Virus record (IMG/VR): IMGVR_UViG_3300025889_000073
Coordinates: 96,001-160,000 of that record
Source of the DNA: a virus
Length of the DNA: 64,000 nucleotides
Reading direction: 5' to 3' (one strand)
Within the stretch, counting starts at the first letter, position 1; the number at the start of each line of letters is the position of its first letter. Shown here piece by piece: positions 59,820-63,263 of this stretch. Both the position numbers and the translations under genes were made by a program. The notes under the pieces were generated by a model. The model worked only from the letters and a program-made list of their open reading frames with translations, was not told the DNA's origin and did no database searches.

Positions 59820-59848
59820 TTGACATTCCATACTTAATACAATATAAT
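59820..59848 (+). promoter_or_regulatory. Consensus sigma70 promoter
   Basis: TTGACA-17 nt-TATAAT. Confidence 0.9.
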
Positions 59849-59854
59849 CAACGA

Positions 59855-59900
59855 ATTGCAGGGACGGGCCGCCTCTGTAATATTTTCCCAAGTGCGGCCC
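59855..59900 (+). promoter_or_regulatory. Predicted H-type RNA pseudoknot in the 5' leader
   Basis: Stem 1 ATTGCAGGG (59855-63) / CTCTGTAAT (59873-81); stem 2 GGGCCGC (59866-72) / GCGGCCC (59894-900). Confidence 0.7.
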
Positions 59901-59922
59901 ATTTTCTATAAGGAAATTTGTA

Positions 59923-60195
59923 ATGTCTGTTAAAGCTAAAGTTCTAGCGTATCTTTCGAAAGATTCGGAGTATAATACTCTAACCGCAAATAAAATGCGT
60001 TCCGTTTTCGGCGCAAAAAACCCCTCGGCCGTCATTGACGAGCTGCGTAAAGAGGGTCATGCTATTTACTTGAATAGCCGTACCAATGCAAGTGGCGAGA
60101 AAGTTTCTTTCTACCGTCTTGGTACTCCAACCAAGCGTATGATTGCTGCTGGTATCGCAGCCCTGCGTAATTCAGGTGTTCGTGCTTTTGCCTAA
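59923..60195 (+). CDS. Small winged-HTH-like protein
   Basis: K.KVL.YL.....LT...+...FG..NPSA.I.ELRK.G..I...YRLG.P pattern; basic; own promoter and terminator. Confidence 0.7.
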   Translation: MSVKAKVLAYLSKDSEYNTLTANKMRSVFGAKNPSAVIDELRKEGHAIYLNSRTNASGEKVSFYRLGTPTKRMIAAGIAALRNSGVRAFA

Positions 60196-60213
60196 ATAAT
60201 CTAAAAGCCGTTT

Positions 60214-60251
60214 AAGAGAGAGGATATATAATTATGTCCTCTCTCTTTTTT
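60214..60251 (+). terminator. Intrinsic terminator
   Basis: AGAGAGAGGATATA-TAAT-TATGTCCTCTCTCT followed by a T run. Confidence 0.85.
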
Positions 60252-60265
60252 ACTATGGATTAATT

Positions 60266-61084
60266 ATGGAAATACAAATCAAAGTCGATGAACTGAAAAA
60301 AAGTAAAGTTTTTATTGCCACCCCTATGTACGGCGGCATGGCCAATGGCCTCTATATTAAATCGTGTTTAGACCTACAAAACACTCTCAACCGTTATGGT
60401 GTTGAAAGTAAATTCTCCTTCTTGTTCAATGAGTCACTAATCACAAGGGCTCGAAATTATCTTGTTGATGAGTTCCTTAGGACAGAAGGTTATACACATT
60501 TATTGTTTATCGATTCTGATATTCATTTTTCTCCACAAGACATTTTGGCACTACTTGCCTTAGATAAGGATGTTATTGGTGGACCTTATCCTAAAAAAGC
60601 TATCAATTGGAAAAATGTTGCTGAAGCATTAAGGAAAAATCCTGATATGGAACCAGGCGAATTAGAACAATTGGTAGGAGAATATGTTTTCAATGTGGTC
60701 AGAGGTACTAAACAATTTTCTGTTACTGAACCGTTAGAAGTTATGGAAATTGGAACAGGTTTCATGTTAGTAAAACGTGAAGTGTTTAATAAGATGGCAG
60801 AAGCCTATCCCATGATTCACTATAAACCAGACCACCAAGGTCAGGCCAATTTTGACGGGTCACGTTACATTCATGCTTACTTTGATACTGTGATTGATTC
60901 TAAAGATTCTATTACAGGCGGCGGTTCTGACCGTTATCTGAGTGAAGATTATATGTTCTGCCAGATGTGGAGAAAAATTGGTGGTAAAGTTTGGCTATGT
61001 CCTTGGATGAAAACACAACACGTTGGTACCTATGCTTTTACAGGTAATATGCCAGCGGTAGCTAATTTTACAGGTAAACTGTAA
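60266..61084 (+). CDS. GT-A fold glycosyltransferase-like protein
   Basis: FIATPMYGG, ESLITRARN, LFIDSDI (DxD), GTGFML+KR.VF and LSEDY.FC motifs. Confidence 0.75.
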   Translation: MEIQIKVDELKKSKVFIATPMYGGMANGLYIKSCLDLQNTLNRYGVESKFSFLFNESLITRARNYLVDEFLRTEGYTHLLFIDSDIHFSPQDILALLALDKDVIGGPYPKKAINWKNVAEALRKNPDMEPGELEQLVGEYVFNVVRGTKQFSVTEPLEVMEIGTGFMLVKREVFNKMAEAYPMIHYKPDHQGQANFDGSRYIHAYFDTVIDSKDSITGGGSDRYLSEDYMFCQMWRKIGGKVWLCPWMKTQHVGTYAFTGNMPAVANFTGKL

Positions 61085-61089
61085 ATAAA

Positions 61090-61177
61090 CAGAGGGTAAA
61101 ACCTCTGCAAAATCTTGGTAAAACAAGTGCATTTGGTAAAACAAATGTTAAACATAAGACAATAAAGGGGTAAAACT
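61090..61177 (+). promoter_or_regulatory. Array of GGTAAAAC elements: three hairpin loops plus one copy at the RBS
   Basis: CAGAGG-GTAAAA-CCTCTG, CTTG-GTAAAA-CAAG, CATTTG-GTAAAA-CAAATG, then AAGGGGTAAAACT-ATG. Confidence 0.7.
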
Positions 61178-62311
61178 ATGTCAATTTTAAAAATTAAACC
61201 GTATGGCGAATTTACGGAAGAACATCGCCAAATCGTGGAAAATAATTTGAGAAAAGATGTATTCCACGAATTCTATACGAATTCATCTTACAAATCATTG
61301 AAATTTAAAGGAACACACTTAGTTCCTGAATCTGTAATCAATCGTGATGGTGAAGGCAGTTCACAATCAACCAGATATAATGGATTAAATCCGAAATATT
61401 CTGAATTGAAATCTGGTATTTTAGAGACCGGTTGGCAGTTGTATCAACGTCCAATTTCTCTTAAAGAAACTAAAGATAAAAAGTATATTTTTCTGGATGG
61501 CCGAACAAAAGATAAAATTTTAACGGAAGTTAAATTTAAAAATCGGATTGTTAATATATACGAAATTGATGAATCTGAGGAAGAATATTTTAATGTAGCC
61601 TTGAACAATGGTGTGGATAACCCACCTGCTGGTTTAATGTTACAGGAAGATGTTGTCGGGATTATGTTGCGCCAAATTAAAAATGGTTACTTACAAAATG
61701 ACCCCGATGAAATTTTAAAAGCAGTTAATCTAGCCTGTGGTAATGGTAAATTTTCATCAAACAAACGTGATGAAATCCGTTGGCAAGTTTATCATCGTGA
61801 ACTGAATATTCAAAACACAAACTTACTTCCAAAGTCCTGGGCTAATGCTGGTGAAGTTAATTTGTGGTTACAAACACACAATTATATAAACAACAACAAA
61901 GTTTTGTATTTGCCATATTCTTCAACATCTGCACCGAAAGCACTTGTAGCAGCTGCAAGCAAATCGCAACAAAATCCAAATAAAGAAATTAGAGTGGTTA
62001 TTTACATACGAAATTTCTTAGGTGTTGATTTGGAAAAATTCTATATCAAATCAATGTTGAAATTTAAAAATGAATGGTATAGGTTCCTTAATGAGTTTGG
62101 CCAAGCATATTTCGATAACAAGAATCCTTTAGACACAAAGGTTAAGTTATATGGTTGTGTTCCATCCAATATTGAAGGTTTATGTGAAGATATGAATAAC
62201 ATGATTATCTTTAACAAAAACGACCAAAAGATTGATGAGAATTATATTCTTTCAAATTCTTTAGACATTGATTCGTTTGTGGAAGAAGATGATGAGGAAG
62301 AAATGGTATGA
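61178..62311 (+). CDS. Hypothetical protein with a possible ParB/Srx-like N-terminal domain
   Basis: ELK..IL..GW.....PI.+.......++DG.T+ pattern resembles the ParB-N core; the rest is unrecognised. Confidence 0.55.
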   Translation: MSILKIKPYGEFTEEHRQIVENNLRKDVFHEFYTNSSYKSLKFKGTHLVPESVINRDGEGSSQSTRYNGLNPKYSELKSGILETGWQLYQRPISLKETKDKKYIFLDGRTKDKILTEVKFKNRIVNIYEIDESEEEYFNVALNNGVDNPPAGLMLQEDVVGIMLRQIKNGYLQNDPDEILKAVNLACGNGKFSSNKRDEIRWQVYHRELNIQNTNLLPKSWANAGEVNLWLQTHNYINNNKVLYLPYSSTSAPKALVAAASKSQQNPNKEIRVVIYIRNFLGVDLEKFYIKSMLKFKNEWYRFLNEFGQAYFDNKNPLDTKVKLYGCVPSNIEGLCEDMNNMIIFNKNDQKIDENYILSNSLDIDSFVEEDDEEEMV

Positions 62312-62586
62312 TTGATTACAAATATAGTGAGGATAGAATCTTAAAAGAATTACAGTCTTATGTAGATTCTACTTACAACGAACACTACTCACAAAATAAA
62401 TTTCAGGCAACTGAGTTTATTATGGATAGTGGCCACGGCGAAGGGTTCTGTATTGGTAATATTATGAAATATGCTCAACGATACGGTAAAAAAGATGGAT
62501 ACAATAGAAAAGACTTGCTTAAAGTTTTACACTATGGTATAATGGCTCTTCACAATCATGATTTGAAAAAGGATAATAGATTATGA
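62308..62586 (+). CDS. DUF3310-like small protein
   Basis: HY, GFCIGN++KY..RYGKK.G...DL.K..HY motifs. Confidence 0.75.
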   Translation: MIDYKYSEDRILKELQSYVDSTYNEHYSQNKFQATEFIMDSGHGEGFCIGNIMKYAQRYGKKDGYNRKDLLKVLHYGIMALHNHDLKKDNRL

Positions 62587-63263
62587 AATTTTCGAGTGAA
62601 ACAATTGGTATTTTAAAAAACTTTGGTAATATTAACCAAGGCATCATGTTTAAAAAAGGTAAGACACTTAAAACTGTTTCGCCACATAAAAACATTTTGA
62701 CTCATGCTGAGATTCAGGAAGATATTCCTACTGACTTTGGTGTTTATGATTTGCCACATTTCCTCTCGACCATGTCGGCATTTAAAGATGTTCCAAGTCT
62801 GGAGTTTGAAGAAAAACAAATGTTTATTGTTGGACCACAAGGTGACAAATTCACCTATCGTTTTTGTGAACCAACAATGATTGTTCTTCCGCCTGAAAAA
62901 GAATTGGTCATGCCTGACCCAGAAGTTAAGTTTGAAATTTCTAATGATAACTTTGACAAATTCATGCGAGCTGCAAACATTCTATCGTCACCACAAATTG
63001 CAATCAAATCGGATGGCCAAAATGTGAATATTGTTTCTTTGGATATGCAAAACGACTCTGCACATACCTATTCACTTAATGTTTCTGAAGGTAATGGTGA
63101 TACCTATCAGATTGTATTTAAAACTGAAAACTTCAGTAAAATACTTTCTGGTACTTATGAATTTTCTTATTCGTCTAAGGGTGTTTCACACTTTAAAAAT
63201 AAGAATCTTAATTTGAAATACTGGGTGACGAGTGAAGCTGGTTCCAGTTTCACCAAAGGTTAA
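62583..63263 (+). CDS. gp45: Sliding clamp gp45
   Basis: S.ET+.ILKNF..IN.GI....G, FG+YDL..FL and YW+..E motifs; precedes gp44. Confidence 0.93.
   Translation: MKFSSETIGILKNFGNINQGIMFKKGKTLKTVSPHKNILTHAEIQEDIPTDFGVYDLPHFLSTMSAFKDVPSLEFEEKQMFIVGPQGDKFTYRFCEPTMIVLPPEKELVMPDPEVKFEISNDNFDKFMRAANILSSPQIAIKSDGQNVNIVSLDMQNDSAHTYSLNVSEGNGDTYQIVFKTENFSKILSGTYEFSYSSKGVSHFKNKNLNLKYWVTSEAGSSFTKG

Follow-up and report, generated by a model that had tools for sequence, protein, structure and literature searches.

The 93-nt gap in front of a ParB-like gene in a T4-like phage (61085–61177 of the window, by which we mean the whole 64,000-nt stretch analysed) carries a row of hairpins with a constant loop and covarying stems, and sequence comparison identifies this row as a real structured element tied to the downstream gene. 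The comparison shows that the structure is there, with covarying stems and a conserved loop, that it belongs specifically to this gene and that several lineages have it in their 5′ UTR; the same layout precedes relatives of the gene in many uncultured phages. On balance, the gap is probably a protein-binding regulatory RNA leader of the ParB-like gene, whoever the ligand is, and the element most likely acts as folded RNA. It is undescribed in the literature and has no Rfam family: against Rfam 15 the window leader had no match at E up to 10 and the loci of eight relatives had none at E up to 1, and a literature search on the loop motif and on RNA-binding ParB proteins gave nothing pertinent except the TIGR-Tas paper (PMC12045711). 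The source genome is that of a 171.7-kb T4-like myovirus, an aquatic phage, and the phages with the array are related to pelagiphage HTVC008M and Methylophilales phage Melnitz.

The gap holds four copies of GGTAAAAC, at 61095, 61117, 61135 and 61169, spaced by 22, 18 and 34 nt. Copies 1–3 are the tips of three hairpins with unrelated stems and the common loop GTAAAA. The four copies, the three hairpins and the position of the fourth copy at the Shine–Dalgarno (SD) sequence were all as the original prediction had described them. The features of the region are as follows, with R1 denoting a covariance model of a single hairpin.

60266–61084, plus strand: GT-A-like glycosyltransferase, 272 aa (phrog_1574, E 2.6e-63; weak Anp1 and Glyco_transf_21)
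61090–61107, plus strand: hairpin 1, CAGAGG-GUAAAA-CCUCUG (fold; R1, 26.4 bits)
61114–61127, plus strand: hairpin 2, CUUG-GUAAAA-CAAG (fold; also in relatives L001, L002 and L023)
61129–61148, plus strand: hairpin 3, GCAUUUG-GUAAAA-CAAAUGU, with an outer G-U pair (fold; R1, 24.1 bits)
61149–61164, plus strand: A/U-rich unstructured linker UAAACAUAAGACAAUA (unpaired or weakly paired in the MFE fold)
61165–61177, plus strand: SD sequence AAGGGG (61165–61170) and fourth copy GGUAAAAC (61169–61176)
61178–62311, plus strand: ParB/Srx-fold protein P0001, 377 aa (AF2 pLDDT 83.6)
62308–62586, plus strand: DUF3310 gene (PF11753, E 3.7e-12)
62583–63263, plus strand: gp45 sliding clamp (PF09116, E 1.9e-9)

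The stop codon of the glycosyltransferase gene lies 5 nt before hairpin 1, and no intrinsic terminator was found on the plus strand of the gap, the nearest being at 60214–60247. The fourth copy overlaps the GGGG of the SD sequence and leaves 1 nt to the ATG at 61178. Stems of 4 bp, taken singly, are marginally stable. The gap as a whole folds at −21.9 kcal/mol (z = −3.96), a stability equalled in none of 200 shuffles. The window contains eight copies of GGTAAAAC compared with 2.8 ± 1.6 in its shuffles, none of 100 of which reached eight; four of the eight fall inside the gap, and the total over both strands of the 171.7-kb genome is 19. Hairpins with a G-C-closed GTAAAA loop occur in the whole genome only as hairpins 1–3, making this the single such array. 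Chance or AT-rich background is ruled out by the shuffles, the other intergenic regions of the same phages and the genome-wide scans. A plain DNA or tandem repeat is likewise ruled out, Tandem Repeats Finder having given no rows. Two further candidates were discarded: the downstream GTAGGTAAAACTAC 'hairpins' are Walker-A codons of gp44, and a long-range pairing of UAAUUUUAC in the upstream coding sequence with the fourth copy is not conserved in L001 or L002 and was treated as chance.

The leaders of homologous genes carry the main evidence. Among 19 non-redundant leaders, from homologues at 33–92% protein identity, 17 bear one to five hairpins with GUAAAA or NUAAAA-type tips on wholly different stems. 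At least one TAAA-loop hairpin is present in 17/19 leaders versus 30/88 other intergenic regions of the same phages (1.97 versus 0.27 per 100 nt; Fisher p = 1.3e-5), and GTAAAA-loop hairpins number 22 in 2,354 nt of leaders versus nine in 230 kb elsewhere, three of these nine being gp44 Walker-A codons and two touching the leader. These two comparisons are the unbiased tests. In an alignment of 27 hairpins (A2), 93% of cells pair versus 48% in shuffles and at most 53% with the partner slid, and both sides change in all six pairs; these covariation statistics are inflated, the hairpins having been chosen for at least four pairs. Individual hairpins can be followed between relatives. The orthologue of hairpin 1 is purine-rich in its 5′ arm and shows compensatory changes, the counterpart of hairpin 2 in L025 is CAUUCG/CGAAUG, and hairpin 3 is retained in L002 and missing from L001; the linker region is A/U-rich in relatives too, of the UUAAAC or CUUUAA type. 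The claim that the element is structured and not a plain DNA repeat is borne out by covarying stems under a constant loop.

What is invariant among the relatives is the loop, with a closing pair that is A-U as often as G-C. An invariant G-C-closed loop had been proposed; the constant GTAAAA loop stands in the window, but the G-C closure does not extend to the relatives. From the aligned sequences, the motif across relatives is R-GUAAAA-Y or, more loosely, a NUAAMA loop. Because some clades depart from this loop (AUAACA, CUAAACA, GAAA), any recognition must tolerate sequences other than GUAAAA. The arrangement of the fourth copy on the SD sequence is kept in the two closest relatives only, L001 (with a GTG start) and L002. 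Many other relatives have an SD region of the CCUU-AAAA-AGGA type, in which the SD sequence can pair around an A-rich loop; the copy reported on the ribosome-binding site is therefore real but clade-specific. The array stays with the ParB-like gene whether the gene before it is GT-like, gp46-like or DUF3310, the glycosyltransferase being the upstream neighbour in only some relatives, and the link between gene and leader is one of co-occurrence. The cultured relatives HTVC008M and Melnitz have neither the ParB-like gene nor the array, which agrees with the suggestion that the gene is an accessory insertion, and the array is absent from the more distant homologues. Among the matches listed in IMG/VR pattern scans for three spaced copies, most were coding tandem repeats (GGGKTSKY-type) and only the contig of L002 had a true array.

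In L006, L012, L041/42, L043 and L051 the hairpins are preceded by a strong sigma-70-type promoter (TTGACA-17-TATAAT type, 10–12 matches out of 12), which puts the array into the 5′ UTR of at least five lineages. No promoter was found in the gap in the window clade, for which transcription across the gap is assumed to be read-through. In L012 and L043, both with strong promoters, the predicted transcript begins at about the first hairpin, a position typical of mRNA-stabilising stem-loops, and the same is seen in L005 behind a weaker promoter (9/12). The hairpins might accordingly be passive, with no dedicated partner, and serve as 5′-terminal or intercistronic stabilisers, insulators or processing barriers; on this view, the A-rich loop and the A/U-rich SD region would be preserved for their help in recruiting the ribosome or S1, as an enhancer or standby site, or for their resistance to host RNases. 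The SD-proximal sequences of relatives resemble the T7 gene 10 enhancer, UUAACUUUAAGAAGGAG, and some hairpins of relatives have plain GAAA tetraloops, both in keeping with a passive role. However, a stabiliser needs no common 6-nt loop in two to four neighbouring hairpins, nor a common loop across phages with proteins only 33–50% identical. In the same phages, the density of such hairpins is sevenfold lower in the other AT-rich intergenic regions, no other leader of the own genome has any, and we regard a passive role as quite unlikely.

The downstream protein, P0001, consists of an N-domain plus helical domain (about residues 36–212), an alpha/beta C-terminal domain (about 220–350) and an acidic tail. 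Foldseek matched it to pNOB8 ParB-N (E 1.8e-5) and to KorB, Noc and ParB-CTP/CDP (E < 1e-3), and VIA-align matched pNOB8 ParB-N with Z 9.9 over 158 residues (36–212), PadC with Z 8.8 and Srx with Z 7.3; look-alikes in BFVD and Atlas carry ParB_N. The predicted model thus has the ParB/Srx N-domain fold, and the weak ParB/Srx-like N-terminus noticed originally from the letters is confirmed by both structural searches. P0001 itself has no Pfam or PHROG match, a PDB sequence search with it was empty, and the best score to Pfam ParB_N (PF02195) among distant members is 17 bits versus a cut-off of 26.3. The stretch L-D-G-R-T-K-D at 105–112 shows little or no variation across 43 sequences and sits at a strand-to-helix junction in the AF2 model, making it a candidate GxxR (GERR-type) box; it reads G-R-T-R in the wider family. 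The C-terminal domain alone folds at pLDDT 88 and has no convincing structural neighbour (best VIA Z 5.2; no Foldseek match at E < 0.001). The relatives of P0001 form 42 close clusters and 301 family clusters, and tblastn with three family members against 50,697 cultured phages found nothing.

The known ligands of ParB/Srx proteins are DNA and nucleotides, and the GTAAAA boxes could be read at the DNA level, whether as duplex, cruciform or transiently single-stranded DNA, as loading or operator sites for the ParB-like protein, analogous to parS or OB. P0001 has a ParB N-domain and helical domain, as have the DNA-binding proteins ParB, KorB, Noc and pNOB8 ParB. ParB genes usually adjoin their sites, as this gene adjoins repeated sites, and repeated asymmetric boxes occur in P1 parS. 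The sense and antisense strands fold equally well: over 22 leaders sense was not better (Wilcoxon p = 0.58), so G-U pairs give no strand evidence, and the count of G-T versus A-C positions is confounded by chance stem extensions. TIGR-Tas arrays, moreover, co-occur with a tasParB gene (Faure et al., 2025; PMC12045711), another array beside a ParB-like gene. A reader of duplex DNA, however, has no use for arms that vary in sequence yet remain complementary, or for a constant non-palindromic centre. The boxes are 22, 18 and 34 bp apart, without helical phasing; every asymmetric loop reads on the sense strand and none on the minus strand; the hairpins lie between promoter and SD sequence; and the SD sequence and the last copy are linked. 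Cruciform extrusion needs stems longer than the 4–8 bp present here. No conserved-arm palindrome was found, the repeated element being an asymmetric hexamer between variable arms, and the genome has no AAA_31/ParA-type match to a ParA partner; a canonical ParABS partition system is ruled out by the lack of a ParA-type match and of palindromic parS sites. Loading of a ParB-like NTPase on DNA, which the original prediction had entertained, explains the complementarity of the variable arms and the 5′ UTR position less well, and we consider a DNA-level site unlikely, though it is the strongest competitor of the leader reading.

We therefore return to the regulatory leader. Several equivalent docking sites for one oligomeric or cooperative protein are the simplest explanation for unrelated stems that carry the same loop. 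The gap would be a cis-acting leader that folds as sense-strand RNA and controls translation or stability, displaying a row of R-GUAAAA-Y loops followed by the A/U-rich SD region. One oligomeric or cooperatively binding protein would dock on the loops, its occupancy would spread to the last, SD-linked copy, and this occupancy would set the translation and/or stability of the message, as in an autogenous operator of the T4 gp32, gp43 and RegA kind. We infer that a protein binds the loops and that it acts as a repressor. Of the possible ligands, the gene's own ParB-like product is our first choice, an assignment that we put forward as a possibility and no more firmly than that. Equally tentative is the fuller proposal that this ParB/Srx-fold protein recognises RNA by both structure and loop, binds GUAAAA perhaps as an NTP-gated dimer, and controls its own synthesis and that of the coupled clamp in a widespread group of aquatic T4-type phages. 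The start of the DUF3310 gene overlaps the stop of the ParB-like gene (ATGA) and the start of gp45 overlaps the stop of DUF3310, so gp45 may be translationally coupled to the ParB-like gene, and the element possibly serves DUF3310 and the gp45 clamp as well.

Within the same leader reading, the loops might be bound by a general phage or host regulator such as RegA, Hfq or S1. A RegA translational repressor is encoded about 3.7 kb downstream, and the ParB-like gene heads the gp45-gp44 block; T4 RegA represses genes 44, 45 and their neighbours via A/U-rich start-codon sites, and RB69 RegA selects UAA repeats. RegA is, however, known to bind unstructured RNA, and a general regulator should have more sites than one. 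R1 found no second site in the 171.7-kb genome save one chance match, antisense in a coding sequence, and matches of at least 20 bits number about zero to one per genome in long contigs of five relatives and in four cultured phages. One R1 match in L041 falls in a broken methyltransferase-like region. A regulon is ruled out in so far as R1 gave no other convincing site in the own genome, the five relatives' contigs or the four cultured phages. HTVC008M and MED4-213, with an annotated RegA-type repressor, and Melnitz, with a 'translational regulator', are without such hairpins, and a general regulator as the ligand seems very unlikely to us.

The element is an undescribed structured feature of T4-type phages of aquatic bacteria, and through it a family of proteins, about 300 clusters in size and unassigned in Pfam and PHROG, becomes approachable for the first time. 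That the stems differ while the loop stays the same suggests recognition of a displayed hexaloop, which is testable with short RNAs. Should the ParB-like protein prove to be the ligand, RNA recognition would be added to the abilities of the ParB/Srx superfamily, and a ParB-type switch would be connected with the control of translation where the replication-clamp gene block begins; should the sites work as DNA, they would represent an unusual centromere or operator of hairpin type.

With its tandem hairpins, unchanging loop and varying flanks next to a phage parB-like gene, the layout bears a superficial resemblance to TIGR arrays, and the gap might be an array of small functional RNAs, either a decoy like a type III antitoxin or TIGR-like guides working with the ParB-like protein. 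TIGR-Tas systems (PMC12045711) are likewise phage-borne tandem units with a conserved loop element, variable flanks and a parB-like neighbour, but they have a Nop-domain Tas protein, an edge repeat and dual 9-nt spacers. The window has none of these: there is no PF01798 match to a Nop-domain protein in the genome, although Tas can be too divergent for that model, and the units are 14–20 nt with self-complementary arms, no edge repeats and no 9-nt spacers. They are also far fewer and shorter than TIGR units, only one to five per leader, and the hairpins are orthologously conserved one by one, as expected of a leader that runs straight into the SD sequence of the gene. Type III ToxI RNAs consist of tandem near-identical repeats of ∼34–36 nt beside an endoribonuclease gene, whereas the units of the window differ and form no tandem direct repeat, and the protein has a ParB/Srx fold and not an endoribonuclease-like one. 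The toxin–antitoxin or decoy RNA that had been suggested finds no footing here, and we judge small-RNA arrays of either kind highly improbable.

ParB-parS, KorB-OB and Noc-NBS share with the window locus the N-domain fold, the helical domain that follows and repeated sites adjoining the gene, and the candidate GxxR stretch of P0001 would be the counterpart of their arginine box. Their sites are duplex palindromes with conserved arms, whereas those of the window have variable arms around an asymmetric centre that alone is constant; P0001 differs from these proteins in having no ParA, in falling below the Pfam ParB_N threshold and in its C-terminal domain. The boxB hairpin of lambdoid nut sites, bound by N, is likewise short, varies in its stem between phages, is recognised through an A-rich purine loop (GAAAA) and precedes the genes under its control on an early phage transcript. 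It is, however, a single hairpin with a pentaloop and an adjoining boxA, and acts in transcription antitermination via an arginine-rich peptide; the window has several hairpins with a hexaloop, and no boxA or N-like protein was seen there. We know of no T4-type phage that uses the nut/N system.

The targets of CsrA/RsmA and the RsmZ/CsrB sponges likewise carry their motif in several hairpin loops and in a copy at the SD sequence, and they are bound multivalently by a dimer; an analogous multivalency is proposed for the window leader. The CsrA parallel drawn originally is apt for this architecture but not for the motif, the loops being GUAAAA or NUAAMA and lacking the defining GGA, and CsrA/RsmA governs a regulon whereas the window element is unique to one gene. 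The T4 autogenous operators (gp32, the gp43 hairpin and the RegA sites) are single operators, whereas the window leader has several equivalent hairpins with one shared loop, the window gene is none of gp32, gp43 and regA, and the candidate ligand has a ParB/Srx fold, for which we know of no RNA-binding member. Like the window leader, they precede an early DNA-metabolism gene of a T4-like genome and consist of a hairpin or pseudoknot together with A/U-rich sequence of the UAAA/UUAAA type extending to the SD sequence. In these operators the protein titrates its own message, and it is this logic that we propose for the ParB-like gene.

The octamer GGTAAAAC occurs at 61095, 61117, 61135 and 61169, all inside the 93-nt gap (61085–61177) between a glycosyltransferase gene and the gene for the 377-aa ParB/Srx-fold protein P0001 (the ParB-like gene). 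Copies 1–3 form the tips of hairpins with the stems CAGAGG/CCTCTG, CTTG/CAAG and (G)CATTTG/CAAATG(T), while the fourth overlaps the GGGG of the Shine–Dalgarno (SD) sequence and ends 1 nt ahead of the ATG; the original observation of three differing stems and a ribosome-site copy is thus confirmed. The predicted fold of the gap is exactly these three hairpins (−21.9 kcal/mol, z = −3.96), and the concern that such arrays arise often in shuffled sequence was not borne out, with 0 of 200 shuffles equally stable. The octamer is found eight times in the window against 2.8 expected, an excess due only to the cluster in the gap. A search for further G-C-closed GTAAAA hairpins in the whole genome returned only the three in the gap, and none with a GTAAAA loop lies on the minus strand. 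A repeat search of the gap ruled out a tandem repeat as the nature of the array. In the final codons of the upstream gene TTTTACAGGTAA occurs twice (61036–61047 and 61066–61077), and TTTTAC there is the complement of the loop. Positions 61063–61071 could base-pair (8/9 positions) with the stretch formed by the fourth copy plus the start codon; the two closest relatives, L001 and L002, do not conserve this complementarity, so it is probably due to chance.

The window covers bases 96001–160000 of a viral record that is 171.7 kb long, with 35% G+C and nearly all genes on one strand. By DNA, the cultured phages closest to it are two T4-type myoviruses, Methylophilales phage Melnitz and Pelagibacter phage HTVC008M. 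The gene order runs from a peptidase, a CobS-like AAA+ gene and a small gene with its own promoter and terminator, through the features below, to DUF3310, the gp45 clamp and the gp44 clamp loader.

59820–59848: promoter TTGACA-17-TATAAT, a perfect match, belonging to the small gene
59923–60195: 90-aa gene (phrog_4973)
60214–60247: strong terminator, 15-bp stem and T-run
60266–61084: GT-A-like glycosyltransferase gene, directly before the 93-nt gap
61178–62311: 377-aa ORF, after the gap
62308–62311 and 62583–62586: ATGA stop/start overlaps linking the ParB-like gene, DUF3310 and the gp45 sliding clamp

Because the ORFs overlap by ATGA, the three genes may be translationally coupled, and control at the hairpin leader could spread to clamp synthesis. 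Promoter, 90-aa gene and terminator make 59820–60265 a self-contained unit, the terminator ending 19 nt ahead of the glycosyltransferase start. Glycosyltransferase genes repeatedly adjoin the ParB-like gene, of the TAGT type in the distant relatives L049 and L050 and GT-A-like here, which may point to a function in DNA modification or may simply reflect a hyperplastic region.

P0001 has 42 close clusters (35–92% identity) in a 5.8-billion-protein collection, and an exhaustive profile search gave 301 family clusters at 50% identity. Leaders were read from 40 loci in IMG/VR and the JGI metagenomes. As anticipated, loop-conserved hairpin arrays precede the homologues in nearly all of them: one to five short hairpins, on stems unrelated to those of the window, carry GUAAAA (21 instances) or the near variants AUAAAA, UUAAAA, CUAAAAA, AUAACA and CUAAACA. 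The closing pair is purine–pyrimidine (A-U in 13/27, G-C in 11/27), giving the loop motif R-GUAAAA-Y. Three kinds of gene lie upstream of the array among the relatives (GT-like, gp46-like and DUF3310), so it tracks the ParB-like gene rather than a genomic position. In eight aligned orthologous leaders the first hairpin is preserved through compensatory changes. Across an alignment of 27 hairpins all six stem pairs vary on both sides, and 93% of cells pair versus 48% when shuffled and no more than 53% when the partners are slid; because hairpins were selected on their inner four pairs, significance rests on counts against non-leader sequence. Within leaders, 22 of the 32 GTAAAA occurrences are flanked by at least four complementary pairs, versus nine cases on both strands of the other 230 kb of these loci; two of the nine touch the leader itself and three are G-V-G-K-T-T Walker-A codons of gp44. 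Under a looser definition (any 5–8-nt loop containing TAAA), hairpins occur in 17 of 19 non-redundant leaders versus 30 of 88 other intergenic regions (Fisher p = 1.3e-5), at densities of 1.97 and 0.27 per 100 nt. Hairpins acting only as passive stabilisers are a less likely explanation.

Individual loci hold further features. Five leaders (L012, L016, L023, L025 and L036) carry an SD-proximal (A)CUUUAAC..CUUUAAAAAGGA some 10–35 nt before the ATG, which appears closely similar to the translational enhancer region of T7 gene 10, UUAACUUUAAGAAGGAG. L016:5471–5531 gives a ROSE_3 thermometer-like match (36.3 bits against a gathering score of 43, E 6e-4). L041:5790–6490, a stretch of about 700 nt that follows the clamp-loader genes and has no called gene, resembles DNA methyltransferase gene fragments and looks like either a disrupted gene or an assembly error.

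A covariance model built on the single hairpin found no further convincing match in the virus's own genome, the sole other match of at least 20 bits being antisense and inside a gene; in five long contigs from relatives and in four cultured phages it gave about 0–1 such matches per genome. Together with the intergenic controls, this makes the array gene-specific and rules out a regulon motif. A general regulator such as RegA, which is encoded downstream of the clamp loader genes in the same genome, is a less likely ligand. The distant family members L045, L049 and L050 have promoters and no such hairpins, as does the MED4-213 homologue (E 2.5e-14), so the array marks one subfamily, at roughly 28% identity or more to P0001. 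HTVC008M and Melnitz have neither gene nor array at the equivalent position. On an unrelated viral contig (L239:3928–3990), a 14-nt tandem repeat GTAAAATAATATTA of at least three copies upstream of an ORF also forms GTAAAA-loop hairpins.

Sigma-70-type promoters lie upstream of the hairpins in several relatives, strong in L006 and L043 (12/12), L041 and L051 (11/12) and L012 (10/12) and weaker in L005 and L028 (9/12), placing the hairpins there in the 5' UTR. The first hairpin begins approximately at the predicted 5' end in L012, L043 and, behind its weaker promoter, L005. The window's own clade has no promoter within the gap, so its hairpins would be intercistronic. The asymmetric loop is on the sense strand in every case; the sense strand folds no better than the antisense (p = 0.58). 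The last element at the ribosome site reads AAGGGG-UAAAAC-U-AUG in the window, L001 and L002 and CCUU-AAAA-AGGA in many other relatives, where the SD can pair around an A-rich loop. Promoter position, sense-strand loop and ribosome-site link favour action at the RNA level, although the lack of a folding advantage for the sense strand speaks against a firm conclusion. The main rival, a DNA-level ParB site, agrees with the protein fold but fits poorly with arms that vary yet stay complementary and with the 5' UTR position.

P0001 has no match in Pfam, PHROG or PDB sequences. Its AlphaFold model (pLDDT 83.6) resembles the ParB N-domain and following helical domain, with pNOB8 ParB-N matched by Foldseek (E 1.8e-5) and by VIA (Z 9.9 over 158 residues, 36–212); KorB, Noc, CTP/CDP-bound ParB, PadC and sulfiredoxin also match, and full-length look-alikes occur in the cyanomyoviruses P-SSM3, P-SSM7, MED4-213 and S-T4. 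In the model, an invariant L-D-G-R-T-K-D (G-R-T-R in the wider family) appears to sit where ParB carries its GERR box. The C-terminal α/β domain has a confident fold of its own with no convincing structural neighbours, and the tail is acidic. Neither a ParA nor a Nop-domain protein was found in the genome.

A multivalent RNA platform for one protein best accounts for an array in which a single loop recurs two to four times on unrelated stems and which ends at the ribosome site of one gene; of the earlier readings, the translational-regulator platform thus fits best, and a toxin–antitoxin-type RNA is less likely, there being no tandem repeat. TIGR-like small RNAs are likewise less likely: TIGR-Tas arrays co-occur with a parB-like gene (PMC12045711), as the leader does, but their defining features are missing here. 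A single protein on the hairpin platform would set translation or stability of the ParB-like gene message. Since the element is unique in each genome and accompanies no other gene, P0001 itself would be the most economical candidate ligand, giving autogenous control; if it does bind the leader, P0001 would be the first member of the ParB/Srx superfamily known to bind RNA. The leader has no Rfam match, and our literature search found no pertinent paper on the loop motif or an RNA-binding ParB. In T4, gp32, gp43 and RegA are under autogenous control, the same logic as proposed here. As a proposed protein-binding leader the element is of a known kind, and what is unusual is its multi-hairpin, single-loop design, together with the unexpected candidate partner.
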